In this document: in pieces, positions 9,577-64,000 of the stretch | How positions within the stretch are numbered: position 1 is the stretch's first letter | Layout of the letters: each line of letters begins with the position of its first letter | Assembly: GCA_025774545.1 (NCBI GenBank) | Contig: JALGVU010000004.1 | Location: forward strand, 2,130-66,129 | DNA length: 64,000 nucleotides | Source: a bacterium | Lineage (GTDB): Bacteria > Joyebacterota > Joyebacteria > Joyebacterales > Joyebacteraceae | Reading direction: 5' to 3' | The notes under the pieces: generated by a model | Told to the model about the DNA's origin: nothing | Seen by the model: only the letters and a program-made list of their open reading frames with translations | Databases searched by the model: none | Translations under genes and position numbers: made by a program

Positions 9577-9879
9577 CTACCTCCCTCTCCTCTTCCGCAC
9601 CGCACCGAGCTTGCCGGCCATCGTGAGCTCCTTGTCCCGACGATCGTCGATGACGACCGTCGTCAGGACTCTCACGACGTGCTCCCCGAAGGTGGACTCG
9701 TGCATGCGCGCGATCGCCTCGAGGATCTCCCTGAGATCTCCTTCAATCGCGGTTCCCATCGGATTGAGCTCGAAGCGGAGCCCCGTCGACTCCAGCACGT
9801 CCAGGCAGTGGGCGACGTGCTCGCTGATGCTCGCGCTCGACGTTCCTACCGGAACCACGCTCACCTGAACAACAGCCAT
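9577..9879 (-). CDS. MTH1187/YkoF family protein (DUF77; thiamine/ligand-binding ferredoxin-like fold)
   Basis: N-terminus MAVVQVSVVPVGTSSASISEHVAHCLDVLESTGLRFELNPMGTAIEG matches the MTH1187 family signature; 100 aa. Confidence 0.55.
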   Translation of the reverse strand: MAVVQVSVVPVGTSSASISEHVAHCLDVLESTGLRFELNPMGTAIEGDLREILEAIARMHESTFGEHVVRVLTTVVIDDRRDKELTMAGKLGAVRKRRGR

Positions 9880-9958
9880 GACCGTTTCCTCCCGCGCGTT
9901 CCACGGACGGAGCCGGAGAGGGCGCCGACACGGTGGTCCGGCGCGCGCCGCGGAGCCG

Positions 9959-10204
9959 TCAGTGTCCCTCCTCCTTGTCCACGACGAGGTTGGTCACCGT
10001 TCCCGTGACTCCCTCGATCGTGCGAAGCTGGTTCAACGTGAGATCGAGAAGCTCGTCGAAGGTCTCCGCCTCCACGAGGGCGATGATGTCCTGGTCGCCG
10101 CTCGTGAGATCGGCGGTCTTGACCTCGCGGCGTTCCAGGAGGGTGTCCCTCACCTCCCGCTCCTTCCCGGCGGCGACGTTGATCTTCACGTATGCTCGTG
10201 CCAC
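9959..10204 (-). CDS. stand-alone Lrp/AsnC C-terminal (RAM) ligand-binding domain protein, ~81 aa (GTG start)
   Basis: ARAYVKINVAAGKEREVRDTLLERREVKTADLTSGDQDIIALVEAETFDELLD resembles the AsnC-type effector domain; AAGGAGG RBS 5 nt before GTG at 10204. The ORF-track ORF extends further upstream to 10318. Confidence 0.5.
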   Translation of the reverse strand: MARAYVKINVAAGKEREVRDTLLERREVKTADLTSGDQDIIALVEAETFDELLDLTLNQLRTIEGVTGTVTNLVVDKEEGH

Positions 10205-10338
10205 TTGTGCCTCCTTGAACTCCGTCACAGGCGTCGTTTTCACCGTTCCGGTTTCGGGGCAGCCGATGCGCCCGTCTCGTGCCGCGGACCGCGGGCCCGC
10301 GGGAACAACGCCGAGCATCTACCAAAAGCGAGTCTCTG

Positions 10339-11163
10339 TCAACCTCGCGCCCGCTTGACGAATTCAAAACGTTCCGCGCGTATGTCGGTCACGAGTACCC
10401 TGTCGACGAGTTCGCCGGTCTCGGAGAGGATCGCCATCGCGATCTCGAACGCGGCATCCCTCGATTCCGACGGCACCTTGTTCAGAATCGGGCGGACGGT
10501 CGCCCCGGCCGGCACGCGCTTCATGCCCCCATCTGGTGCGGCCACGACGCGCGCCACGAGGTCCGGAGTCACCCGATCCCCCTCGGCGTAGGCGCGAAGG
10601 AGCTCTGGCCGGTGGACGGTGCCGTCGTCGATCCGGCGACCCAGGACGTCGAGCCCCACCATCGGGCAGACGATGGTCGCCCCTCCGGGAATCACGGGCT
10701 CGTGCTCGGCCGGCGCCTTGAGCGACCGCTGGCGCGAGCCGTCGGCTTCGACCAGGGTCGCGTCGGGCCCAACGGCCGCGGCGAGGGCCTCGAGGGCCGC
10801 GGGGGCGACGCCGACGAACTTCCCATCGGAGCCAAGCGCACTCGCCACGAAGAGGCTCCGATGCACGGCGAGATCCCGGCTGACGCGCGCGGTGCAGGCG
10901 CTTCCCACCGTTCTCGGCAGCGGGGGGACGTTCGCCACTCCGTCCGGCGGCCGGCAGGACGGACACAGGGCGACCGGCATGGCCTCCGCAACGCTCTGCC
11001 CGACCTTCGTCGTCGTCGACGCGAGCACTCTCCAGCCCACGCCGGCGAGTTCCTCGACGAGCCTCAGAAGCGCGGTCGTCTTCCCCCCTCCACCGACGAG
11101 CGCGACCACGTCGCCGCGGCCGACGCCGATCGCCTCGGAGAGGAGCGCGACTCGCGTCACTCT
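10339..11163 (-). CDS. YqeC-like protein (TIGR03172-type, probable selenium-dependent hydroxylase accessory protein family), GTG start overlapping upstream stop
   Basis: GDVVALVGGGGKTTALLRL and VLASTTTKVG motifs typical of YqeC. The ORF-track ORF 10339..11865 is an artefactual in-frame extension into the GGDEF gene. Real start is GTG at 11163 in a GTGA start/stop overlap with the upstream gene. Confidence 0.5.
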   Translation of the reverse strand, partial: RVTRVALLSEAIGVGRGDVVALVGGGGKTTALLRLVEELAGVGWRVLASTTTKVGQSVAEAMPVALCPSCRPPDGVANVPPLPRTVGSACTARVSRDLAVHRSLFVASALGSDGKFVGVAPAALEALAAAVGPDATLVEADGSRQRSLKAPAEHEPVIPGGATIVCPMVGLDVLGRRIDDGTVHRPELLRAYAEGDRVTPDLVARVVAAPDGGMKRVPAGATVRPILNKVPSESRDAAFEIAMAILSETGELVDRVLVTDIRAERFEFVKRARG

Positions 11164-44285: not shown

Positions 44286-45188
44286 CTACTCGACGGCCGC
44301 GAGGCTCTGCCGGTACTCCTCGAGCTTCGTTCTTGCCTGAAGGTCGTCCGTGTTGCGCTCGAGGATCGCCTCGCAGATCTCGATGGCGCGGGTGAAGAGC
44401 CCCTGGCGGGCGTAGATCTCAGCGAGCGTGAGCGTGGCGATGCCGGAGAGCTCGTCTTCCCGCGTGCCGGCCTCCTCGGGGTCGACCGGCGCGGCGAAGA
44501 GATCGGCCAGATGGGCCAGCTCAAGCGACAGGCTGCCCACCTCCCGCTCCCGGGCGGCCGGCTGGATCATCGGACGATCCTCGCTCGACGGGATGATGAG
44601 CGGAGGCCGGTCGGCCGCGGGCTCGGCGTCCGGAGGCCGGTCGGCCGCGGGCTCATCGCGCGGAGGTTGGTCGGCTGGGGGCTCGTCGTGCGAAGGCCGG
44701 TCGGCCGCGGGCTCATCGCGCGGAGGTTGGTCGGCCGGGGGTTCGTCGTGCGGAGGCCGGTCGGCCGCGGGCTCATCGCGCGGAGGTTGGTCGGCTGGGG
44801 GCTCGTCGTGCGAAGGCCGGTCGTCGGCCGGAGACGGCGGGGTCAACGCGGCGTCCGGCGCTTCCGCCCGGGCGCGGGTCTCACAGTCGTCCAAGTAGGC
44901 GCGGGCCTCGATGTTGTCGGGATCGCCGGCGAGCACCACGCGGAAGGCGGCTTCGGCTTCGTCGCTCCTGTCGAGGGCCAGTGCCCTCGCGAGAACGACG
45001 CGGATCGACAGGTGGTCCGGGAATTCCCCGAGGGCATCCCTCGCGAGCGCGACGGCCTCATCGACTCTGCCCTGGAGTCGGTAGGCTTCCGCGAGCGGGG
45101 CGAGGACGCGGGGTGACCTCCGCTCGGAGAGCCTCTCTTCAAGGGCGCGGATGGCGCCGTCCAGAGCGTCTCGGTCCGGAGCCTTCAA
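44286..45188 (-). CDS. TPR-repeat protein with internal 20-aa tandem repeats (RPxHDEPPADQPPRDEPAAD)
   Basis: TPR-like helices at both ends; 60-nt tandem repeat x ~3.8 at 44606-44836. Confidence 0.6.
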   Translation of the reverse strand: MKAPDRDALDGAIRALEERLSERRSPRVLAPLAEAYRLQGRVDEAVALARDALGEFPDHLSIRVVLARALALDRSDEAEAAFRVVLAGDPDNIEARAYLDDCETRARAEAPDAALTPPSPADDRPSHDEPPADQPPRDEPAADRPPHDEPPADQPPRDEPAADRPSHDEPPADQPPRDEPAADRPPDAEPAADRPPLIIPSSEDRPMIQPAAREREVGSLSLELAHLADLFAAPVDPEEAGTREDELSGIATLTLAEIYARQGLFTRAIEICEAILERNTDDLQARTKLEEYRQSLAAVE

Positions 45189-53472: not shown

Positions 53473-54348
53473 CTACCCCTTTCCCAGTGCCTTCTGAACC
53501 TCTCTGATCACCGCCTGCACGATCGCTTCGTCCGGCGACCCTTGACCGCTGGTCCGCGGTGGAGCCGCCGGCCCGGCTCCCGCCGTCGATGGGGTCTCCT
53601 GGTCGGCCGTCGTCCGAGCGGGCGGCGACGTTCGAGCCTGGCTCTCCTTCTCCTCGCTGTCTGAGGTGTCGCAGGCTCCGCAGGAGAAACAGCTTGCAGC
53701 TCCGTCGGCGAGACCGAGCTTCTCACGCACGTCGAGGAGCTTCCTGACCTCATCCCGCGTCAGAGGAGACGCGCCGCCGAGTATCCTGGCCGAGAGAGTG
53801 ATCTCGGCGAAGTGCTCCACGGTCTCGAGGCGGAAGTACGCCCGGTCGATGTCCGCACCGAGCGTCAGGACGCCGTGGTTCCGGAGCAGCAGCGCGTTGT
53901 AGTTCCCGATGAAGGCGTCGATCGACTCGGGGACCTCGGGCGTCGAGGGCGTCGCGTAGTCCGTGAGCGGCACCTGCCCGAGCGTCAGGATCACCTCGGG
54001 GAGCACGCACTGGGCGAGCGGTACTCCGGCCACGGCGAAGCCGGTGGCGCGCGGCGGGTGCGCGTGGACGATCGCGTCGACGTCTCGCCGTCGCTCGTAG
54101 ACGAAGAGGTGCATCGGGAGCTCCGAGGACGGCGCGCGCGCGCCCGAGATCTGCCGGCCCCGGGCGTTCACGATCGCGAGCTCCTCCAGACGAAGGAAGC
54201 CCTTCGAGACACCGGTCGGCGTCACCAGAATCCTGTCGTCGGACAATCTGACGCTCAGGTTGCCGTCGTTGGCGGCGACGTAACCCCGCTGCCAGATGCG
54301 GCGGCCGATCTCGACGATCTGGCGCCTGGCCTCGAACTCGGACGGCAC
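53473..54348 (-). CDS. class II aldolase/adducin family protein (fuculose-/rhamnulose-1-phosphate aldolase-like) with C-terminal linker + amphipathic helix (putative BMC encapsulation peptide)
   Basis: Class II aldolase Zn-binding His pattern (HAHP ... H); C-terminal Ser/Thr/Pro/Ala-rich linker followed by terminal helix DEAIVQAVIREVQKAL. Confidence 0.8.
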   Translation of the reverse strand: MPSEFEARRQIVEIGRRIWQRGYVAANDGNLSVRLSDDRILVTPTGVSKGFLRLEELAIVNARGRQISGARAPSSELPMHLFVYERRRDVDAIVHAHPPRATGFAVAGVPLAQCVLPEVILTLGQVPLTDYATPSTPEVPESIDAFIGNYNALLLRNHGVLTLGADIDRAYFRLETVEHFAEITLSARILGGASPLTRDEVRKLLDVREKLGLADGAASCFSCGACDTSDSEEKESQARTSPPARTTADQETPSTAGAGPAAPPRTSGQGSPDEAIVQAVIREVQKALGKG

Positions 54349-54445: not shown

Positions 54446-54718
54446 CTACTCCTCGACGTCGATGCTGTCGATGACGCCGACGATGACGGTGCGAATGGGC
54501 GGGTTGTCGAGTCCGGTCACGAGGGCGGCCGAGCCTCCCTCGTCGACCACGAGCACGGTGTCTCCCCTTCCCGCCTGGACCGAGTCGACGGCGAGGATCG
54601 TCTCGTCGAGACTCGTGCCGTCGGGATCGAGCCTCTCGACGATGAGGAGTTTCCGGCCGTTCATCGCGTCGTGATGAACCGTCGAGACGACCTCGCCGAT
54701 GACCCGTCCGATGAACAC
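54446..54718 (-). CDS. BMC vertex protein, EutN/CcmL/PduN family (BMC-P #3), GTG start
   Basis: VFIGRVIGEVVSTVHHDAMNGRKLLIVERL matches Pfam03319 N-terminus; AAGGAG RBS; the ORF-track ORF 54446..55078 is over-extended. Confidence 0.8.
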   Translation of the reverse strand: MFIGRVIGEVVSTVHHDAMNGRKLLIVERLDPDGTSLDETILAVDSVQAGRGDTVLVVDEGGSAALVTGLDNPPIRTVIVGVIDSIDVEE

Positions 54719-54723
54719 GCCGC

Positions 54724-55014
54724 TCACTCCTTGGGGAAGATCGATTCGCCTCCGACGGTCACGTGATCGACGATGCCGACGATCGCCGCGTCCGCGGGAT
54801 TGAACGTGGGACTCAGGGCCTTCGCGGCCTCGCGCGACTTGACGAAGTAGACGAGCTGGCCGGGCGCGGCGCTCACGGTGTCGACCGCGACGAGAGGCGT
54901 CCCCCGCTCCTCGAGGAGGTGCGTGAGGGGCTGGACGACCAACATGCGTTTCCCCGTCAGCGAATCCACCTTCGCGGTCGCCCACACGGTTCCGATCACC
55001 CTCGCCAGGTGCAA
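54724..55014 (-). CDS. BMC vertex protein, EutN/CcmL/PduN family (BMC-P #2)
   Basis: MHLARVIGTVWATAKVDSLTGKRMLVVQPL N-terminus. Confidence 0.8.
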   Translation of the reverse strand: MHLARVIGTVWATAKVDSLTGKRMLVVQPLTHLLEERGTPLVAVDTVSAAPGQLVYFVKSREAAKALSPTFNPADAAIVGIVDHVTVGGESIFPKE

Positions 55015-55028
55015 GGCTGCCTCCGCGC

Positions 55029-55577
55029 CTAGAAGACCTTCGGCCCGAGATCCTCGTGCGGTCTCGGGATGACGACACTCCGGACGAGGTTGCCCCCGCG
55101 CTTCGCGACCGCGAGAGCGGCCTCGGTGGCCGCCTCGACGTCGTAGATCTCGCCGGTCATCGTGAAGAACGCCTTTCCCCCGAGTCCCTTCGCGAGGCGG
55201 ATCTCGATGAGCTTGACCGGCGCGGCCTTCGCGGCCGCGTCGGCCGCGAGGATGCTCGATGCCACCGTGAACGTCTCAACGACGCCGAGCGCGCCGAGGG
55301 CGGACACCTCCGTCGCGCCCAGGATCGCCGGGAAGACGTCAGGGTGGACGTGCGGGATGAAGAGGGTGTCGGCGACGACGTCGCCGCCGACGGCGGCGCC
55401 CCTCTCGAGCGACGCCTCGACCGACGACACGTCACCCGCGACGAGCACCATGAACTTGCCGGGGCAGATCGCGGTTGCCTCCAGGATCTCGACGTCGGCC
55501 GTCTTGGCCATCTCGTCGGTGACCGCGATCCCGATCGCGATGCTGATCGTCTCGACGAGTCCGATGGCTTCCTTCAC
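55029..55577 (-). CDS. tandem-domain BMC shell protein (BMC-T, PduT-like)
   Basis: Two PF00936-like domains (GLVET...VTDEMAKTADVEIL and GVVETFTVASSILAADAAAKAAPVKLIEI); 182 aa. Confidence 0.75.
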   Translation of the reverse strand: MKEAIGLVETISIAIGIAVTDEMAKTADVEILEATAICPGKFMVLVAGDVSSVEASLERGAAVGGDVVADTLFIPHVHPDVFPAILGATEVSALGALGVVETFTVASSILAADAAAKAAPVKLIEIRLAKGLGGKAFFTMTGEIYDVEAATEAALAVAKRGGNLVRSVVIPRPHEDLGPKVF

Positions 55578-55646
55578 GAAGCACTGCCTCCCTCAGGCGC
55601 GATCCCCGTTGGGTCGCGCTCTTCCGCTCCACCGCGCCGTCCCGGC

Positions 55647-56975
55647 TCACGCGGCGATGACGATCTCCTCCGCGGTGATCGATTCGATCGTACCCGCGAT
55701 GCTCGCGTGCACGCGGGCGCCGAGCTTGCCATCGGGGATCTCGCCAACGACGTCCCCTTCGAGCACGCGGTCTCCCTCGGCGACCACCGGCCGCGCGGCG
55801 GCGCCGATGTGCTGGGTCGTTCTGAGGAAGACGCGCGCGGGCTCGAGCCGGCGTTCGTCGAGAGGAGCCGGCCCATCGTACTCCGAGAGCCCCAGTCGCT
55901 GCACGAGCCTCGCTGACGGTATCTGCCGGTACTCGCGCACGTCGTCGGGCTTGAGGTCGGCCCGGCGGTGCGGATTCACCACGCCTCGGCGCGTGAGTTC
56001 GGCCTTGAGGTCCGCGAGGATCCGCCGCGGGCGAATCCCGAGGGGGCACGCGAAGAGCTCGCACATGCCGCACTCGCAGCAGAGGAACGCCGACGTGACG
56101 TGCTCGTGATCCTCGGGCAACGTGTCGTACTGCACGGCCCGCACCGTGCGGTGCGGCTTCAGGTCGTGTCCCAGGAGCGCGCGCGGACAGAGCTCCGTGC
56201 AGGCGAGGCACTGACAGCAGGCCGCCCGCGCGATCCGGAGCATCTGCGCCCGCGACTCGGTCCGCGCGGTCACCATGGTGTGATCCGGCGGAAGCACGAT
56301 GAGCCCGCCGACCGTCTTCGTCAGCGGCACCGCGTGGCTCGACGCGATCGTCCCCATCATCGGACCGCCGACGATCACGGCCGCGTCGTCGACCGTCACG
56401 CCGCCCGCGCGGTCGATGATCTCGCCGATCGGCGTTCCGATCGGCACGGTCAGGGTCGCCGCGGCTGCGACCTCTCCCTGGACGGTCACCATCCTCGAGG
56501 TCACGGGCCGTCCCTCGACCGCGTCTGCGATCTGCGCGAGGGTCGTGACGTTGTTCACGACCACGCCCACGTCGAGCGGGATCCCGCCCTCGGGGACGAC
56601 GCGCCCCGTGACGTCGAAGACCAGCAGGAACTCATCGCCCGCGGGATAGACGTTCTCGAGGAGCTTGAGCTCGATCGCGGAATCGGCCGGCAGAACGCGC
56701 TCGATCGCCTCGCCCGCCCGCCTGTTCTTCCTCTTGACGGCGAGGACCACACGGCTCGCTCCGACCGATTCGGCGAGAAGCTCGAGACCGCGTACGACCC
56801 GATCGGGCCGCGAGACGAGAAGCTCGGTGTCCGACCGGATCAGCGGCTCGCACTCGGCGCCGTTCGCGAGGAGCACGTCCACGTCGGCCCTCGCCTTGAC
56901 GTGCGTCGGGAACCCGCCCCCGCCCGCACCGACGACGCCCGCCTTCTCGATCGCTGTGGCCACCTGATTGTCCAC
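55647..56975 (-). CDS. PduS/RnfC-like NADH-binding flavoprotein with two [4Fe-4S] ferredoxin motifs
   Basis: N-terminal GVVGAGGGGFPTHVKA (RnfC/PduS nucleotide-binding), CCQCLACTELCP and CCECGMCELFACP cluster motifs; C-terminal barrel-like GDRVLEGDVVGEIPDGKLGARVHASIAGTIESI segment. Confidence 0.7.
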   Translation of the reverse strand: MDNQVATAIEKAGVVGAGGGGFPTHVKARADVDVLLANGAECEPLIRSDTELLVSRPDRVVRGLELLAESVGASRVVLAVKRKNRRAGEAIERVLPADSAIELKLLENVYPAGDEFLLVFDVTGRVVPEGGIPLDVGVVVNNVTTLAQIADAVEGRPVTSRMVTVQGEVAAAATLTVPIGTPIGEIIDRAGGVTVDDAAVIVGGPMMGTIASSHAVPLTKTVGGLIVLPPDHTMVTARTESRAQMLRIARAACCQCLACTELCPRALLGHDLKPHRTVRAVQYDTLPEDHEHVTSAFLCCECGMCELFACPLGIRPRRILADLKAELTRRGVVNPHRRADLKPDDVREYRQIPSARLVQRLGLSEYDGPAPLDERRLEPARVFLRTTQHIGAAARPVVAEGDRVLEGDVVGEIPDGKLGARVHASIAGTIESITAEEIVIAA

Positions 56976-57050
56976 GGTTCGTTGCGTCTCCAGGCGCTTC
57001 TGCCGCGTGCCCGCGCGTCCTCGGGGAGCTCGGTCCTCGGGGACGGCGCG

Positions 57051-58484
57051 CTACACGATGCGGAAGTGGTCGACGAGCGTACACCGCCGCTCGCGCGTGA
57101 AGGTGCGCGCGGACGTGAGTCCCTCGCCGGTCGGGCTCGCGATGGTGAACGACGTGAAGCCCTCGCCGCCAAAGCTGAGCCCGGCGAACGACGGCCCGTT
57201 CTTCACGAAGATCGAGACGTCCATGACGCGGGCCATCCGAGAGAGAACATCGATGTTCTTGGAATGGGCCACCGCAGTATGTCCGTAGCCCCGCTCCACC
57301 TCGCGCGCGAAGTCGATCGCCTCGGCGGCCGTCTCGACGGTCACGAGGGGGATGATCGGCATCATCTGCTCCGTCCACACGAGCGGATGGGAGCGATCGG
57401 CGTCGAAGAACGCGATCCTCGCGTCGGAGCGGCACGGGAGGCCCGCCGCATCGAGGATGACGGACACGTTCTTCCCGACGAAGTCCCGCGCGACGGGCGA
57501 GCTCCTCCCCGGTCCCAGGTTCTCCGTCAGGACGAGATCGGTGACACGGTCGACCACGGGCCCCCTGAGCTCGACCGCCCCGGCCTGTCTGAGGGCGTCC
57601 TTCAGGGCGTCCGCGATGGCGCGAACCGCGACGATCTCCTTCTCCGCGATGCACACGATGTTGTTGTCGAGGCTCGCGCCGGCGATGATGTCGCGGGCGG
57701 CCTTCGGCAGATCGGCCGTCTCGTCGACCACGACGGGGGGGTTCCCGGGACCCGCGGCGATCACCTTCTTGCCCGACTGCATGGCGGCCTTGACGACGCC
57801 GGGGCCGCCGGTCACCACGAGAAGCCGGATTCCGGGATGGGACATGACGGCCTGCGCGGTCTCGATCGAGGGCTCGTTCACGGTGTGGAGAAGCGCCCTC
57901 GGTCCCCCGGCCTCCGAGATGGCGCGGTTCAGAATGTCGATCGTCGTCAGAGAGACGACGCGAGCCGACGGATGGGGATTGAAGACGACGGCGTTGCCGC
58001 CGGCGACCATCCCGATGGCGTTGCAGATGATCGTCTCGGACGGGTTCGTCGAGGGGGTGACGGAGCCGATCACGCCGTAGGGCGCATGTTCGACGAGGGT
58101 CAGGCCGTGGTCGCCCGAGTAGGCCGTGGGCGCGAGGTCCTCGAGGCCGGGCGTCTTCGTGATCGCGAGGGTGTTCTTGCGGATCTTGTCCTCGTAGCGC
58201 CCGAGTCCGGTCTCGTCGACGGCGAGCCTCGACAGCCGCTCGACGTTCTCGAGGGCGGCCCGGCGCATCGCATCGATCATGGCGCGGCGTCGCTCGAGCG
58301 GGACGTCGCGGTATTCGAGGAAGCTCGTGCGGGCGGCGGCCGCGGCCGCGTCGACGCTCCCGAGGATACCGCGTCCGTCGAACGGAGGCGGCGCCTGCGG
58401 CGTCTCGAGCGCCTGTCCGCGCGCCGTCAGCTCGTCGAGCACCTTGCCGACGATCGTCTCGATTGAGGGGGCGTCTCTCTCCAC
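57051..58484 (-). CDS. CoA-acylating aldehyde dehydrogenase (EutE/PduP family) with N-terminal amphipathic helix (putative encapsulation peptide)
   Basis: ALDH fold with catalytic Cys (NNIVCIAEKE) and EutE/PduP-like spacing; N-terminal SIETIVGKVLDELTARG helix + Pro-rich linker. Confidence 0.85.
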   Translation of the reverse strand: MERDAPSIETIVGKVLDELTARGQALETPQAPPPFDGRGILGSVDAAAAAARTSFLEYRDVPLERRRAMIDAMRRAALENVERLSRLAVDETGLGRYEDKIRKNTLAITKTPGLEDLAPTAYSGDHGLTLVEHAPYGVIGSVTPSTNPSETIICNAIGMVAGGNAVVFNPHPSARVVSLTTIDILNRAISEAGGPRALLHTVNEPSIETAQAVMSHPGIRLLVVTGGPGVVKAAMQSGKKVIAAGPGNPPVVVDETADLPKAARDIIAGASLDNNIVCIAEKEIVAVRAIADALKDALRQAGAVELRGPVVDRVTDLVLTENLGPGRSSPVARDFVGKNVSVILDAAGLPCRSDARIAFFDADRSHPLVWTEQMMPIIPLVTVETAAEAIDFAREVERGYGHTAVAHSKNIDVLSRMARVMDVSIFVKNGPSFAGLSFGGEGFTSFTIASPTGEGLTSARTFTRERRCTLVDHFRIV

Positions 58485-58587
58485 GTGTGAACGATCCTCG
58501 ATGAGGAACGGCGATCCCGAGAGGGGCGAGCCTCACGGACCCGCGTCGCGGCCCGTCGGCCCTTGCTCCCCGCCTGGGATCGCCGTC

Positions 58588-58878
58588 CTAGGACTTGTTA
58601 TAGACGATGCTCCCGTCGACCTCGACCGAGTCGACGATGGCCATGATCACGGCATCGGCGGGGCGGTCCTGCGTGATCTCCGTCTGACGAGCCGAGCTGC
58701 CGCTGGCGTAGAGCACGACCTCCCCGGGACCCGCCCCGACGGCGTCGATCGCGACGACGAACGCGCCGGTCTCGCCGCCCTCCAGATCGATCTGCTTGAC
58801 GATCTGGAGCTTCGTCCCGACCAGCTTCTCGTTCTTGACGGTCGAGACGACCGTCCCCACGACCTTCCCGAGATTCAT
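58588..58878 (-). CDS. BMC vertex protein, EutN/CcmL/PduN family (BMC-P #1)
   Basis: [31 protein letters not shown]-terminus. Confidence 0.8.
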
Positions 58879-58972: not shown

Positions 58973-59269
58973 CTACTTCGATCTGACGTTCGCGGTCTTC
59001 CCTATCGGCAGCACGTCCTCGAGGCTCGCGTGCGGCTTCGGGATCACGTGCGTCGTGAGAAGCTCGCCGACCTTGCTGGCCGCCGCCATGCCCGCGTCGA
59101 CCGCGGCGCGCACTGCCGCCACGTCCCCACGGACGACGGCCGTGACGTATCCCCCGCCGACCTTCTCGTACCCCACCAACGTCACCTTCGCCGCCTTGAC
59201 CATGGCGTCGGACGCCTCCACCATGCCGATGAAACCTCTCGTCTCGATCATGCCGAGGGCCTCGCCCAT
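58973..59269 (-). CDS. BMC hexamer shell protein (BMC-H, PF00936); ORF extends to 59323
   Basis: [57 protein letters not shown] canonical BMC-H. Confidence 0.85.
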
Positions 59270-59344: not shown

Positions 59345-59617
59345 TCAGGTGAGCAGAATGTCCTCGAGCATCTCATGCGGCGCGGGGATCACGTGGTACG
59401 AGACGAGCTCGCCGACCTTCGACGCGGCCTCGGCGCCGGCCGCCACCGCCGCCTTCACCGCCCCCACGTCTCCCCGAACCAGCGACGTGACGTATCCCCC
59501 GCCGATCTTCTCGTACTTCGTCAGGGTGACGTTCGCCGTCTTGACCATCGCGTCGGTCGCCTCGATGAGGCCGATGACGCCCTTGGTCTCTACCATTCCT
59601 AGAGCAAGACCGGGCAA
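59345..59617 (-). CDS. BMC hexamer shell protein (BMC-H, PF00936)
   Basis: [58 protein letters not shown]. Confidence 0.85.
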
Positions 59618-59657: not shown

Positions 59658-60305
59658 CTACCGGAGTATCTCGATCGTCATCGGCGACCGAACGTCGGCC
59701 GCGTTGCCGTCGTCCGTGTCGACGTGAAGCTCGAGGGCCGCCGTCTTCCCAACTCGGATGAGCACGCTCTCGAGGACGAGCGCCCTCACGCCCGCGAACC
59801 GCACCCGGACCAGATCGCCGTCCTTCACACGGCGGATCGTCGCGTCGCGCTCGGTCATGTGGATGTGACGCGTGGCCCGTATGGCCCCTTCCCTGAGCGC
59901 CACGGTTCCGGCCGGGCCGACGAGCGTGAGAGGCTCGCTGCCCGCGAGGTCGCCGGAGCGCCGAACGGGCGGGTCGATCCCCAGCCGGATTGCGTCGGTC
60001 CTCGAAAGCTCCACCTGGGTGTAGTTCCTCGTCGGTCCGAGGATCCTCACCCCCTCGATCGCGCGCATGGAGCGCCCGACGATCGTCACCCTCTGCTCCG
60101 AGGCAAACTCACCAGGCTGGCCGAGGTCCCGGAGCTTCGTGAGGGCGAACCCGTCGCCGTAGAGCGCGTCGAGGCCGCCCCGGGAGATGTGCGCGTGCCG
60201 GGCAGACACGTTGACCGGAATCCCGGTGGCGTCGGATCGGCGTGCCGGCTCGTCTCCCTGGAGCCTCCGGAGGACCTCCGATGCTATCCTCTCGACGTCC
60301 TCCAT
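59658..60305 (-). CDS. pduL: phosphate acyltransferase PduL (PTAC) with N-terminal amphipathic helix. ORF extends to 60527; ATG at 60305 with GGAGGG RBS
   Basis: Duplicated PduL motifs with catalytic His (VSARHAHIS ... ATRHIHMT); N-terminal [14 protein letters not shown] helix. Confidence 0.8.
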
Positions 60306-60393
60306 CCCTCGACCCTCCGCTGCGCGCACCTGCGGGAGACAAACCTCCCCGCTGCGGGCGCGGAAGTCCACTCTCGGCCCTGAGTTGAGCGCG

Positions 60394-60422
60394 AGTCTAG
60401 CAGAGGGTCCTGAGACTGTCAA
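60394..60422 (-). promoter_or_regulatory. candidate sigma70-like promoter for the BMC operon (TTGACA-17-TAGACT), ~90 nt upstream of pduL
   Basis: Minus strand: TTGACA at 60422-60417, 17-nt spacer, TAGACT at 60399-60394. Confidence 0.3.
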
Positions 60423-60910: not shown

Positions 60911-61867
60911 TCAGCGTGCCCTGCGCTCAAGCGCCGCCGCGAGTCCGCGGCGGTACGCCCCCGCGATGAGACAGAGAACCGCGGGACGCGAGAGCGGCCC
61001 CAAGTGAACGCTACGCGCCACGGCTCTCACGAGCGCGCTCACGGGGCGGTTCGTGACGAAGCGGAGCACGAGCTTCCTCGCGGCAAGGGGGAACGGGTCG
61101 CCGGGCGCGGGAGGAAGGAGCCCGGCGACCGAGAGCTCGCCCGCGCGGCCGGGATGCCGCTCGAGAAGTGCTAAGAGAGGCTCGGCCGTCTCGAAGCGCT
61201 TGTCGAGGACTTGGTCGAGGGTCTGCCGGTGGACGTGGTGCGAGATTGCCTCGGCACAGTACCAGAACTTGAGGCCGGCGTCGTTCTCGAGGCGGAAGGC
61301 GATCTCGGTGTCCTCGAAGCCGTAGTTCTTGAAGCTCTCGTCGAAGAGCCCGACCGCGAGGAGATCGGCGCGGGCGACCGAGGAGTTGTTGGTGACGAAA
61401 TAGCGCGCCGGGGAACGCCCGCCCGGCGCGAGCTTGCGGACCCCCGTGCCGTCCAGATACGTGTAGATCGTGGACCGCCCCAGTTCGGGAGCCTGGGTCG
61501 CGTCTCCGATCGCGACGGCCCGGTCGTGGGTCTCGTGAAACGCCACGTGCGCCTCGATGAGTCCCTCGTCGCAGCGCATGTCGTCGTCGACGAAGACGAC
61601 GAGGTCGTTTCCGGCGGCCCGGATGGCCGTGTTCCGGGCGGCGGCCCTCCCCCGGTTCTCCTCGTGTCTCACCGCGACGAGCTTGAAGGGCGGCTCGAGC
61701 GCCTCGAGGAACGCGGGGGTGTCGTCGGCGGAGCAATCATCGACGACGACGACCTCGATGAGGTCCATCGGATACGTCTGCCGGGAGAGCGACGCGAGCG
61801 TCTCGGCGAGGTTCTCCAGCTTTCCGTACGTCGGCATGACGACGCTCACGGTGCTACGGGGCGGCAT
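60911..61867 (-). CDS. family 2 glycosyltransferase
   Basis: VVMPTYGKLENLAETLASLSRQTYP ... VVDDCSADDT (GT-A DxD region). Confidence 0.75.
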   Translation of the reverse strand: MPPRSTVSVVMPTYGKLENLAETLASLSRQTYPMDLIEVVVVDDCSADDTPAFLEALEPPFKLVAVRHEENRGRAAARNTAIRAAGNDLVVFVDDDMRCDEGLIEAHVAFHETHDRAVAIGDATQAPELGRSTIYTYLDGTGVRKLAPGGRSPARYFVTNNSSVARADLLAVGLFDESFKNYGFEDTEIAFRLENDAGLKFWYCAEAISHHVHRQTLDQVLDKRFETAEPLLALLERHPGRAGELSVAGLLPPAPGDPFPLAARKLVLRFVTNRPVSALVRAVARSVHLGPLSRPAVLCLIAGAYRRGLAAALERRAR

Positions 61868-61870
61868 CCC

Positions 61871-62965
61871 TCAACGCCTCCAGTTCCGGACGAGCTCCTC
61901 GCAGAGCTCCTCCATCCTCGCCATGTGCGCGCCGTGGTCGGCGTCGGTCTGGACCTTCGCGGCGGCCGCCGCGGCGATCGACTCGCGCAGCTCCCCCGAA
62001 TCGATCAGACGCAGGATCGCGTTCTCGAGCGCCTCCTGGTCGCGCGGGGCGACGACGAGACCCGTCGTCCCGTCCTCCACCCACTCGAGCGCGGACGCGA
62101 GGCTCGACACCACGGGTGGCGACCCGCAGGCCATGGCCTCGAGGAGCGAGACCGGCGTGGCGTCGACCGACGGCACCGTCAGGAAGGCGTCCGAGATCAC
62201 GAGGTAGGCCGGGAGCTCCCCGTGTGGGATCCTCCCCACGAAGTGCGCGCGCTCGTCGATCCCGAGGCCGCAGGCTAACGCCCGGAGCTCGCTGTCGTCC
62301 CCCTCGTTGCCCGCGATGATGAAGTGCGTCGTCGGGCGCGCCTCGAGGACCCGCGGGATCGCGCGAACGATCACGTCGATGTTGTAGTAGGCCTGCGTGA
62401 AGCTCCTGATGCTGATCACGACCGGGGCGTCTGAGGGAATGCCGAGACGCTCGCGGACGTCGGACGGGGCGTCGGGTCTGAAGTTCGCGAGATCGACGCC
62501 CCACTGGACGACGCGACAGGCGTCCCTGCTCGCGCCCATCCGGACGGCGTGCTCGAGGATGTCCTCGGAGTCTCCGGTCACGAGGTCGGCACTCCGGAGG
62601 ACGTGGCGGGCGAGCCGCCCCTTCATGAACGACGTGTGGGGTGTGAGATAGACGTCGTCGCCCCAGACGGTCATGATGAACGGATGGAAACCCGAGAAGG
62701 CGCCCCAGTAGCCGTAACCCGTCAGGAAGTGCGTGTGCAGAAGATCGGGCTCGATCGCGGCGAGGATCCTCCGCACCTTGCGGAGAGCGACCGCGTAGTG
62801 GAGCGGCTTCCAGGGAATGCCGGTTCGGATGTCGTAGACCTTGACGCCAGCGATCGGCGAGGGCTGGACCGTCATGAGGTGGACGTCGTGGCCGCGCTCG
62901 ACGAAGTGCGAGAGCCACCGCTCGGTGTGGATGTGTCCGCCGATTGACAGGTACGCGATCCTCAT
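61871..62965 (-). CDS. family 4 (GT-B) glycosyltransferase, 364 aa; the ORF-track ORF 61871..63976 is over-extended
   Basis: MRIAYLSIGGHIHTERW N-terminus and C-terminal EAMACGSPPVVS...DGTTGLVV GT4 motif; stop overlaps the GT2 start region. Confidence 0.75.
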   Translation of the reverse strand: MRIAYLSIGGHIHTERWLSHFVERGHDVHLMTVQPSPIAGVKVYDIRTGIPWKPLHYAVALRKVRRILAAIEPDLLHTHFLTGYGYWGAFSGFHPFIMTVWGDDVYLTPHTSFMKGRLARHVLRSADLVTGDSEDILEHAVRMGASRDACRVVQWGVDLANFRPDAPSDVRERLGIPSDAPVVISIRSFTQAYYNIDVIVRAIPRVLEARPTTHFIIAGNEGDDSELRALACGLGIDERAHFVGRIPHGELPAYLVISDAFLTVPSVDATPVSLLEAMACGSPPVVSSLASALEWVEDGTTGLVVAPRDQEALENAILRLIDSGELRESIAAAAAAKVQTDADHGAHMARMEELCEELVRNWRR

Positions 62966-63003
62966 GCTGCCCCGATCGTGAGAGGTCGGTCCCAGGCGTA
63001 CGG

Positions 63004-64000
63004 TCAGAGCGTGACCGAGAGCCCGGTCCGGGGGACTCCCTCCATCCTCCTGGCGTGGTTCCTGAGGTACCCCGCGGCGACCCACACGAAGAGCCACACG
63101 AGCGGCACGACCTTGAAGGAGTGGTTCAGAACGTGCTGGAACGCGGTCCACCGCGCCTCGGGGTTGTCTCCGGGCACGTCGTAGAGGATGAAGAGCGTGG
63201 GCGCGGCCGCGAGGGCGTAGATCACCCAGAGCACGCGCGCCCGCGTCTTCGCGTAGTAGAGGACGAACAGCGGAAGCAGGAGCACGTAGTGGTACTCCCA
63301 CACCTCCCTGAACACGAAGAAGTAGACCATCGTCCAGAGGCCGAGCGACTCGAGGAAGTCGAACGGCTTCTTTCTGAAGGTGACCCAGAGGCTCGTGACG
63401 ACCGGCGCGAGCATCGTGAGGAAGACGAGCCCGCGGGTGACCGAGAGCTTGAGCGGCCCGATGTAGGCGGCGATCTCGGACGCCTGCGGGAAGAACCTCA
63501 TCTTGAGGGTCATGAGAAGCGCCAGGACCCCCAAGTTGCCGGAGTACGGGTAGAGCGTGAGCGAGAAGTTGTCGTGCGCGAAGCTCCCCACGCCCGTTTG
63601 ACGGAAGGCGAGATACGGGATCGTCGTGACGATCAGGAGCGCGGCCGCGATCGCGATCGTCCGGTAGCGGCGGAGCTTGAAGAGGATCGGGACGTAGAGG
63701 ATCGTGAGGTGCTTGATGAGCACGCTCGCGATCCAGTTCCACTCGAACGCGCGCATCCTCCCCCGCGAGTACCCGAGCGCCGTGAAGAAGACGAGGACGG
63801 CCATCGGGAAGGTCAGCTGTCCCATGTACTGCTCGATGTAGAAGGGCGTGTACATGAGCCACATCGAGGCGAGGTAAGCGAAGAGCGAACGGTCTATCAC
63901 CATCCGCCAGGTCCCCCAGAGCGCGGCCAGGAGCACGAGCTCGATCAGGACCACCCAGAGCCAGTAGGCGGCCCACGGCCCGAGCGCGTTCAGCGGCACG
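63004..64000 (-). CDS. polytopic membrane protein, probable GT-C-type glycosyltransferase (DUF2029-like); N-terminus beyond window edge
   Basis: ≥8 hydrophobic helices, Tyr/Trp-rich loops; location in a glycosyltransferase cluster. Confidence 0.45.
   Translation of the reverse strand, partial: VPLNALGPWAAYWLWVVLIELVLLAALWGTWRMVIDRSLFAYLASMWLMYTPFYIEQYMGQLTFPMAVLVFFTALGYSRGRMRAFEWNWIASVLIKHLTILYVPILFKLRRYRTIAIAAALLIVTTIPYLAFRQTGVGSFAHDNFSLTLYPYSGNLGVLALLMTLKMRFFPQASEIAAYIGPLKLSVTRGLVFLTMLAPVVTSLWVTFRKKPFDFLESLGLWTMVYFFVFREVWEYHYVLLLPLFVLYYAKTRARVLWVIYALAAAPTLFILYDVPGDNPEARWTAFQHVLNHSFKVVPLVWLFVWVAAGYLRNHARRMEGVPRTGLSVTL

Follow-up and report, generated by a model that had tools for sequence, protein, structure and literature searches.

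A 'BMC-P triplet', in which each locus carries three distinct BMC-P, two always adjacent and co-occurring and the third with BMC-H and AldDH, has been described in more than 20 BMC types (Sutter, Melnicki, Schulz, Woyke & Kerfeld 2021, Nat Commun 12:3809, PMC8217296). Supplementary Data 2 of that catalog lists it for ACI, FRAG1-8, HO, MIC3, MIC4, MIC7, MUF2 and all SPU subtypes, and MIC7, with six catalogued loci, was found in Ca. Latescibacteria and Ca. Eisenbacteria (PMC8217296). The reason for the triplet has been termed unknown in the field (PMC11585597). BMC-P pores are ~4 Å wide and GS-lined, with G49, D54 and E79 as hexamer contacts (Kalnins 2020, PMC6971018), and co-expression of CsoS4A and CsoS4B has been found experimentally to yield heteropentamers (PMC11606499). 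Here we describe three BMC-P genes, P1, P2 and P3, in a 64-kb stretch of DNA (the window, taken at its full length). Nothing essential distinguishes them from the catalogued triplet, although the grey and orange labels of P2 and P3 are our own assignment. The original prediction had regarded triple BMC-P as characteristic of only a few locus types, which the 2021 catalog contradicts. The window locus is another example of a triplet already catalogued, also for the Eisenbacteria group, and because the three-pentamer arrangement was on record in 2021 with this lineage included, the finding matters little as such.

All three genes are on the minus strand between 54446 and 58878, as predicted, with P2 and P3 adjacent and P1 beside a pair of BMC-H genes. 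P1 (58588..58878, 96 aa, ATG start) is a canonical BMC-P, and P2 (54724..55014, 96 aa, TTG start) and P3 (54446..54718, 90 aa, GTG start) are the first and second members of the adjacent pair. Each covers model positions 1-83 of 83 of PF03319 (EutN_CcmL), with scores of 100.8 bits (E 6.1e-29), 92.8 bits (E 1.9e-26) and 87.4 bits (E 9e-25), respectively, against a gathering score of 25 bits. In a six-frame HMM scan of the 64-kb window these were the only BMC-P, and the PF00936 genes numbered three. The TTG start of P2 at 55014 has a GGAGG ribosome-binding site in front. The mechanical 210-aa ORF containing P3 reaches 55078, beyond the real start, which is the GTG at 54718, with an AAGGAG ribosome-binding site 8 nt and the stop codon of P2 5 nt ahead of it; the N-termini quoted in the original prediction are correct, the V of P3 being this GTG. 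Exact public matches for P1 and P3 were found in JGI metagenome 3300033143 and in MAG assembly GCA_025774165.1; an exact-match search of contigs with the AldDH gave no hit. That P3 might be a pseudogene or an ORF artefact was considered and rejected on the evidence of synteny, dN/dS, the ribosome-binding site and a public gene call identical to it (90 aa).

The anticipated divergence of the paralogs is borne out by pairwise identities of 36% (P1/P2), 37% (P1/P3) and 32% (P2/P3), and the PF03319 fold is retained by all three, so that the outcome named in the original prediction as refuting it, an ORF that does not fold as this domain, was not seen. P1 is 60% identical to the H. ochraceum pentamer of PDB 5v74, its best PDB match (E 6.9e-29), so that the Haliangium-type likeness noticed at the outset is real. 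AlphaFold2 models were obtained for P2 (pLDDT 76.8; Foldseek TM at most 0.81 against PDB BMC-P) and P3 (pLDDT 89.1; TM 0.80-0.83 to GrpN, CcmL and EutN), both with five strands and a helix at residues 60-68, as in the five-stranded BMC-P beta-barrel with its short helix between beta5 and beta6; the top 47 Foldseek PDB matches of the two models are all BMC-P, with best TM of 0.73-0.83. Estimates of dN/dS were 0.12-0.22 for P1, 0.11-0.32 for P2 and 0.15-0.41 for P3, rough figures since dS is near saturation (0.6-1.9). P1, P2 and P3 each encode an intact PF03319 protein, evolve under purifying selection and share one orientation within a single operon-like block, and they are almost certainly real genes and members of a BMC-P triplet.

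The block is an operon of 10 genes spanning ~7 kb of the minus strand in the order PduL, BMC-H, BMC-H, P1, AldDH, PduS-like, PduT-like BMC-T, P2, P3 and class II aldolase, P1 lying directly downstream of both BMC-H genes and upstream of AldDH. It opens with a PduL-type phosphotransacylase of 215 aa from MEDVER (59658..60305; PF06130, E 6.6e-66), the length also given by the metagenome gene call for an identical locus (L001); its mechanical ORF reaches 60527. The two hexamer shell proteins follow, BMC-H paralog 1 (59345..59617; PF00936, E 8.1e-29), for which the same metagenome call begins 7 codons later and gives 83 aa, and BMC-H paralog 2 (58973..59269; PF00936, E 1.2e-29), of 98 aa here and in the metagenome call, with a mechanical ORF reaching 59323. 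Downstream of P1, the AldDH (57051..58484; PF00171, E 8e-36) carries an N-terminal EP-like helix and is 70-79% identical to Ca. Eisenbacteria MAG orthologs. It is followed by a PduS-like flavoprotein/Fe-S oxidoreductase (55647..56975) with PF01512, PF13375, PF13534 and PF10531, the first, second and fourth of which define the catalog's HMMPduS (Sutter 2021, PMC8217296). Next is a 182-aa BMC-T(s) (55029..55577; two PF00936 domains, E 2.2e-42), a tandem-domain trimer of PduT type, which has a single Cys at position 38 and aligns at full length to the PduT structures 3n79 and 3pac, with (I/V)CPGK aligned. The class II aldolase after P3 (53473..54348, 291 aa; PF00596, E 1.8e-47 over residues 9-185) has a long low-complexity linker and a C-terminal helix resembling an encapsulation peptide, and is likely the signature enzyme.

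A sigma-70-like promoter match lies upstream of PduL (60394..60422, minus strand; TTGACA-17-TAGACT, 10 of 12 matches with TG), a match to the consensus only, with one such match found in the locus and 0.3 expected. No riboswitch or other RNA was found in the operon leader at the Rfam gathering score, no acetate kinase is present among 39 Pfam-scanned ORFs covering most long coding frames of the window, and the Pfam scans of the window likewise showed no alcohol dehydrogenase, no sugar kinase or isomerase and no regulator. With its class II aldolase, AldDH, PduL and PduS/PduT pair, the operon probably encodes an aldehyde-processing metabolosome. The host genome appears from sequence similarity to be Candidatus Eisenbacteria-like, as most of the closest AldDH loci (66-79% identity) carry the label of Ca. 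Eisenbacteria MAGs; homologs of P2 and P3 are likewise named Ca. Eisenbacteria.

We compared the locus with 80 related loci from many phyla, among which the common gene order is H, P1, AldDH, (PduS), T, P2, P3, (aldolase). In an NJ tree, 225 BMC-P fall into three clades that match the three gene positions, with mean identities of 0.45-0.58 within and 0.33-0.36 between clades, and bootstrap values of only 27-49% for the three exact clades on the 90-column alignment. The clades are common to Eisenbacteria, Spirochaetes, Chloroflexi, Acidobacteria, Planctomycetes, Verrucomicrobia, Bdellovibrionota and Myxococcota. By this sequence comparison, P1, P2 and P3 represent three ancient orthologous groups that hold fixed locus positions across many phyla, and since the same three genes recur syntenically in dozens of related loci, the triplet is not due to chance. 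The phylogeny suggested by the original prediction yielded three clades, with P1 grouped with Hoch_5814, while the placement of P2 and P3 in the catalogued grey and orange families is our proposal. All three BMC-P are present in 62 of 79 loci; at least 11 of the 17 loci without a full triplet are cut by a contig end, and another (L063) is a length-filter artefact, its P3 lying inside a long ORF. P2 comes ahead of P3 in every case (63 of 63 loci), the gap having a median of -4 nt, so that the 5-nt gap of the window stands against a usual 4-nt overlap in its relatives.

The clades also differ in their motifs. P1 keeps VGAGxGE, GSSARQT and DAVIMAIVD. The P2 clade has R-E-A in place of S-S-A in the GS pore motif, followed by a 3-residue deletion, and the P2 of the window reads KSREAAKAL and SAAPGQ; in the latter, the GAGxGE motif for hexamer contact has lost its two glycines and its acidic residue. 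This loss is specific to the Eisenbacteria lineage, as the wider P2 clade mostly has (R/A)AGPGE. The P3 clade is distinguished by EG.SA, and by P.R in place of P.DA. Across the pore-motif region P1 reads GSSAR, P2 SREAA and P3 EGGSAA; the (I/V)(V/I)D motif is kept in all three.

Taken overall, the reading of the three genes as the conserved BMC-P triplet of a metabolosome is likely to be right. That P1 and P2/P3 divide the labour is a more tentative proposal, which we hold with somewhat less than even confidence. P1 would be the main vertex cap, because it is the ortholog of the H. ochraceum vertex pentamer and because its motifs for shell contact (VGAGxGE, IVD) and for the pore (GS) are canonical. 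P2 and P3 would be the catalog's grey/orange pair, made together from adjacent genes, and would probably still fit the five-fold position since both keep (I/V)(V/I)D and the GAGxGE motif is kept in degraded form. Their pore and helix region appears altered, in P2 by the Arg-Glu and in P3 by an inserted acidic E-G, and they would most likely be low-abundance alternative pentamers on a subset of vertices, possibly mixed P2/P3 pentamers after the example of CsoS4A/CsoS4B. Such pentamers would be more than mere copies of P1 and would modify the properties of the vertex, and specialised vertices, as originally suggested, would be a reasonable explanation of the divergence between the paralogs.

The ordered and usually overlapping P2-P3 pair could further encode an obligate mixed pentamer or other hetero-oligomer, its pore lined by the P2 Arg-Glu and the P3 E-G, which we regard as rather doubtful. 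In a mirror-tree analysis, by partial correlation of distance matrices with AldDH controlled, P2-P3 gave the highest value (0.47, against 0.01-0.36 for other pairs), only a hint because tight linkage alone could produce such a signal. Two loci (L022 and L041) have P1 and P2 and no P3 within 7.5 kb, which speaks against P2 and P3 being strictly obligate partners in a complex, unless these loci have a P3 encoded elsewhere. The window copies of P2 and P3 have net charges of 0 and -10; charge complementarity was considered as a sign of heteromer formation and rejected, as the clade averages are both acidic and give no consistent signal.

Other accounts of the three genes are conceivable. They could be redundant, interchangeable caps, recent duplicates kept for dosage and functionally alike: all three retain the PF03319 fold and (I/V)(V/I)D, and 12 pentamers per shell suffice, so that any single paralog could do in principle. 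However, identities of only 32-37%, deep cross-phylum clades at fixed gene positions, and conserved residues particular to each clade, with purifying selection on all three, make this very improbable; redundant genes would not be expected to persist over long times as three distinct lineages. It is less improbable, though still unlikely, that P2 and/or P3 have no role as vertex caps, the BMC-P fold having been reused for an assembly factor, a lumenal adaptor for cargo or cofactor, or a non-pentameric oligomer. The degraded GAGxGE motif of the window P2 would fit such a role, as would the observation that the only HO BMC-P sequence found in the PDB set searched is of P1 type (5v74), but the motif loss is confined to the Eisenbacteria lineage against a wider P2 clade with mostly (R/A)AGPGE. 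The predicted monomers also superpose on vertex pentamer subunits with TM ~0.8 and have no added domains, and across the 80 loci the P2/P3 pair has no conserved partner beside it except the BMC-T upstream and sometimes the aldolase.

Gated pentamers, whose pores would open and close to control metabolite flow, had been offered as an alternative to specialised vertices in the original prediction. The pore-motif region does differ among P1, P2 and P3, but the differences are fixed, clade-specific substitutions; neither a mobile element nor a ligand site is apparent, and they do not resemble a gate. BMC-P pores are moreover ~4 Å wide and GS-lined (PMC6971018), anions prefer hexamer pores in simulations of a carboxysome shell (PMC11551347), and gating is described in the BMC literature consulted for BMC-T(dp) trimers and not for BMC-P, the six-frame HMM scan having found no BMC-T(dp) in the window. 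We consequently give gating hardly any credence, and return to the reading of a conserved triplet with a possible division of labour.

The value of the locus is as a compact test case for why so many BMCs retain three old pentamer lineages although a shell is closed by 12 pentamers, with all three BMC-P in one ~7-kb operon together with a complete, putatively EP-tagged enzyme set. The comparison across phyla offers experimental handles in the unvarying order of P2 before P3 and the overlap of their stop and start codons, in the P2 Arg-Glu, and in the restriction of canonical motifs to P1. A mixed P2/P3 pentamer, if real, would give the shell a few 'special' vertices of distinct chemistry, serving for instance as a conduit or attachment point without counterpart in P1 vertices, and the same would hold for every triplet-bearing microcompartment, beyond this one locus.

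Among known systems, the CsoS4A/CsoS4B pair of alpha-carboxysomes, also adjacent and always co-occurring, is the best precedent for P2 and P3 acting together, although it is a pair rather than a triplet and belongs to an anabolic organelle; P2 and P3 have a weak match to CsoS4A or none (E 1e-4 or worse). The HO shell likewise has a triplet and shares the core order H, P, AldDH, T. Its non-adjacent BMC-P, Hoch_5814 (PDB 5v74), is the 60%-identical relative that groups with P1 in the NJ tree, inside the P1 clade. HO loci, mostly from Myxococcota, differ in having one BMC-H, two BMC-T(dp) and one BMC-T(s), whereas the window has two BMC-H and no BMC-T(dp), and in HO type I the other two BMC-P are in a satellite locus while here all three are in one operon. 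PDB 6owf_C was considered as a second Haliangium BMC-P and rejected, being CcmL from a synthetic shell of the beta-carboxysome.

MIC4 agrees largely in enzyme content, with a main locus comprising AldDh, PTAC, a pfam00596 aldolase and a pfam00871 acetate kinase, of which only the acetate kinase was not found among the scanned ORFs of the window; it shares the PduS/PduT pair with pore Cys and the triplet (green/grey/orange in the catalog, the colours of the window copies being assigned by us), but has been reported from Actinobacteria, Bacteroidetes, Calditrichaeota, KSB1, Firmicutes and Ignavibacteria and not from Eisenbacteria. MIC7 occurs in the lineage to which the closest relatives belong, and has in common with the operon an N-terminal EP-like helix on the AldDH, BMC-H of two kinds, which in MIC7 are a standard and a specialised one, and the triplet (again green/grey/orange in the catalog, with the colours of the window copies of our assignment). 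The 182-aa PduT-like BMC-T(s) with its pore Cys beside a PduS homolog is as in two of the six catalogued MIC7 loci, and a satellite BMC-T(dp) is absent from the 64-kb window. AldDH is the sole enzyme of MIC7, whereas the operon described here also encodes PduL, a PduS-like protein and a class II aldolase. PduL is found in the operon's 19 closest relatives as well, and the class II aldolase too where the contig reaches, extending the described content of Eisenbacteria (MIC7-like) loci by PduL and the aldolase.

Three BMC-P genes (PF03319, EutN_CcmL; here P1, P2 and P3), the number given in the original prediction, lie in a run of ten co-oriented minus strand genes from 53473 to ~60305, spaced by 5 to 103 nt and all assigned by Pfam matches far above gathering thresholds. 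From the PduL end, they encode a PduL-type phosphotransacylase (59658-60305), two BMC-H proteins (59345-59617 and 58973-59269), P1 (58588-58878), an aldehyde dehydrogenase (AldDH; 57051-58484), a PduS-like Nuo51/RnfC/Fe-S flavoprotein (55647-56975), a tandem-domain BMC-T (55029-55577), P2 (54724-55014), P3 (54446-54718) and a class II aldolase (53473-54348). PF03319 is matched over 83 of 83 model positions in each BMC-P, with E-values of 6e-29 (P1), 2e-26 (P2) and 9e-25 (P3). P2 starts with TTG, with GGAGG ahead of it, and P3 is nested in a mechanical ORF of 210 aa, its true start being a GTG at 54718 with AAGGAG 8 nt and the P2 stop codon 5 nt before it. Public gene calls agree on the length of P1 (96 aa) and of P3 (90 aa), and a six-frame HMM scan of the 64-kb window found no additional gene for a BMC-P or BMC-domain protein. 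The predicted count of three is therefore correct. A single sigma-70-like promoter match (60394-60422, minus strand; TTGACA-17-TAGACT with TG) precedes the start of PduL by ~90 nt, and the intervening leader contains a weak terminator-like hairpin (60347-60365, minus strand). Just upstream of this promoter-like site is a weak match to 6S RNA (RF00013; 60566-60666, minus strand) which is probably due to chance (25.3 bits against a gathering threshold of 46.4, E 0.048).

The flanks (1-53433 and 60911-63999) are ordinary chromosome, and nothing around the operon suggests a mobile element. They encode adenosine deaminase, M16 peptidase, GAF-SpoIIE phosphatase, SLT-LysM transglycosylase, a C25 peptidase with FlgD-Ig domain (1206-aa ORF), pfk, tpi (by eye with likely gap and pgk upstream), secG, lgt, PBP2-mreC-mreB, radC, radical-SAM methylthiotransferase, ComB-like phosphatase, biotin carboxylase, a likely efp (by eye), TPR proteins, DUF4837, a FadL-like outer-membrane protein, PilZ, flavin reductase, HU, SppA, and GT2 and GT4 glycosyltransferases. 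One TPR protein (44286-45188, minus strand) carries a mid-protein tandem proline/acidic repeat, DEPPADQPPRDEPAADRP..., that gives rise to long artefactual ORFs on the other strand.

P1, P2 and P3 share only 32 to 37% pairwise identity. Against eight Eisenbacteria-like orthologous loci, dN/dS was 0.12 to 0.22 for P1, 0.11 to 0.32 for P2 and 0.15 to 0.41 for P3, similar to AldDH and BMC-T of the same operon, all values being rough as dS is near saturation. AlphaFold2 models of P2 and P3, built on alignments of public homologs (pLDDT 76.8 and 89.1, respectively), have five strands and a short helix after β5. In Foldseek searches of the PDB, the top 47 matches to each model were all BMC-P, including GrpN, EutN, CcmL, the Haliangium pentamer, CsoS4A/B and MSM0273 (best TM-scores 0.73 to 0.83), and matches beyond these had E > 0.1. 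P1 and the pentamer in the solved Haliangium ochraceum shell (5v74) share 60% identity. Given the fold matches of P2 and P3 and this identity of P1, all three hold as PF03319 folds.

Scanning one genome per species with the window AldDH yielded 80 loci, onto all of which we mapped the ten window proteins. The closest loci by AldDH (66 to 79% identity) are mostly from MAGs labelled Candidatus Eisenbacteria; the 19 closest, Eisenbacteria-type relatives (L002-L020), encode PduL, PduS and, on contigs that reach far enough, class II aldolase. A core order of BMC-H, P1, AldDH, (PduS), BMC-T, P2, P3, (aldolase) is conserved, going by record titles, in Eisenbacteria, Spirochaetes, Chloroflexi/Anaerolineae, Acidobacteria/Thermoanaerobaculia, Planctomycetes/Phycisphaerae, Verrucomicrobia, Bdellovibrionota, Myxococcota and Hydrogenedentota, among others. 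When 225 BMC-P proteins are placed in a neighbour-joining tree, they fall into three groups corresponding to the three locus positions: P1, beside BMC-H (84 sequences, including the 5v74 pentamer), P2, the first gene of the pair (71 sequences), and P3, the second (66 sequences). Mean identity is 0.45 to 0.58 within and 0.33 to 0.36 between groups, with tree resolution limited by the short alignment (bootstrap 27 to 49% for the exact groups). Four Bdellovibrionota proteins have P2 as best BLAST match, yet the tree places them with P3, matching their position. Of 79 loci, 62 carry all three groups; at least 11 of the remaining 17 are truncated at a contig edge and one, L063, is a length-filter artefact, leaving five to six true exceptions. 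In L063, the P3-type domain lies at the N-terminal end of a 358-aa stop-to-stop ORF (9698-10771), which could be a BMC-P with a fused extra C-terminal region or reflect a missed stop or assembly artefact. Six Spirochaete-type loci (L023, L024, L027, L042, L043 and L077) have two tandem P1-clade genes plus P2 and P3, giving four BMC-P, and most of these also have two BMC-H copies.

The pore of a typical BMC-P is ~4 Å wide with a GS motif at its rim, followed by a small helix between β5 and β6, and hexamers are contacted through a glycine-rich loop (G49, D54) and E79/K80 (Kalnins et al., 2020; PMC6971018). The P1 clade retains VGAGxGE (at 80% or more) and GSSARQT, and keeps DAVIMAIVD as in Hoch_5814 (the 5v74 pentamer), CcmL and GrpN. 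In the P2 clade the loop is mostly (R/A)AGPGE, or SAAPGQ in the Eisenbacteria subgroup, and a conserved R-E-A replaces S-S-A ahead of a three-residue deletion (KSREAAKAL in the window). The P3 clade has a conserved E-G ahead of the motif, a one-residue insertion, and P.R versus P.DA in the others; the window copy has QAGRGD in the loop and a net charge of -10. The (I/V)(V/I)D motif is kept in all three. Judged from these motifs, the divergence is old, clade-specific and centred on the pore/helix region and shell-contact loop. It fits specialisation of some kind, as had been proposed from the divergent N-termini, and nothing points to the gated pentamers offered as the other possibility.

The locus has three intact genes of three ancient orthologous lineages in one operon-like block. 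The reason for BMC-P paralogs "remains unknown" as of 2024 (PMC11585597). We propose that P1 would be the principal vertex cap, and that P2 and P3 would be made together and act jointly as minor alternative, possibly mixed, pentamers at some vertices. Joint action is suggested by their invariant order (P2 before P3 in 63 of 63 loci) and usual gene overlap (median gap -4 nt, with stop and start codons overlapping), and by the partial correlation of their evolutionary distances with AldDH controlled, which is higher than for any other pair (0.47, all others ≤0.36) but which linkage alone could explain. The adjacent pair CsoS4A/CsoS4B, shown experimentally to form heteropentamers (PMC11606499), provides a precedent. 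P2 and P3 showed no charge complementarity across clades. A caveat to the partnership is that two Eisenbacteria-like loci, L022 (13440-13721) and L041 (13365-13646), break the otherwise constant P2-P3 pairing: they have P1 and P2, and the 7.5 kb downstream contain no gene of the P3 type; their P3 may be encoded elsewhere in those genomes.

On family knowledge, the aldolase would yield an aldehyde which AldDH would turn into acyl-CoA, with PduL recycling CoA. Helices noted by eye at the N-termini of AldDH (SIETIVGKVLDELTARG, followed by a Pro-rich linker) and PduL, and at the aldolase's C-terminal end (DEAIVQAVIREVQKALGKG, after a ~60-residue low-complexity Pro/Ser/Thr/Ala-rich linker), look like encapsulation peptides. 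The window lacks an alcohol dehydrogenase. BMC-T can be aligned over its entire length with the PduT structures 3n79 and 3pac, its sole cysteine (Cys38 in AICPGKF) falls at the PduT Fe-S ligand position, (I/V)CPGK, and its gene is directly downstream of that for the PduS-like protein, suggesting that this pair may recycle cofactors by passing electrons across the shell, instead of an alcohol dehydrogenase doing so. The window contains no kinase, isomerase, regulator or riboswitch from which to name the substrate.

The three genes are the "BMC-P triplet" catalogued by Sutter et al. (2021; PMC8217296), which a specialist would recognise at once. The premise that triple BMC-P occurs in only a few locus types was wrong, since this catalog reports the triplet in ACI, FRAG1-8, HO, MIC3, MIC4, MIC7, MUF2 and all SPU subtypes; the suggested resemblance to Haliangium is real, but not special. 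P1 groups with the non-adjacent pentamer of Haliangium, from which we infer that it is the "third" (green-type) member; P2 and P3 would be the grey/orange pair. The triplet itself being known, the value of the locus is as a tidy single-operon system for testing why it exists, and the cross-phylum regularities seen here make specific experiments possible. MIC7, from Candidatus Latescibacteria and Candidatus Eisenbacteria, combines a green/grey/orange triplet with two kinds of BMC-H; two MIC7 loci have pore-cysteine BMC-T(s) adjoining a PduS homolog, and an Eisenbacteria MIC7 BMC-T in the catalog tree has the same length as the window BMC-T, 182 aa (PMC8217296). MIC7 is described with AldDh only, whereas the window locus adds PduL, PduS and aldolase; its enzyme content equals that of MIC4 except for acetate kinase, of which there is no match among 39 Pfam-scanned ORFs covering most long coding frames in the 64-kb window. 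We therefore file the locus as a fuller MIC7-like/MIC4-like member and not as a new type.
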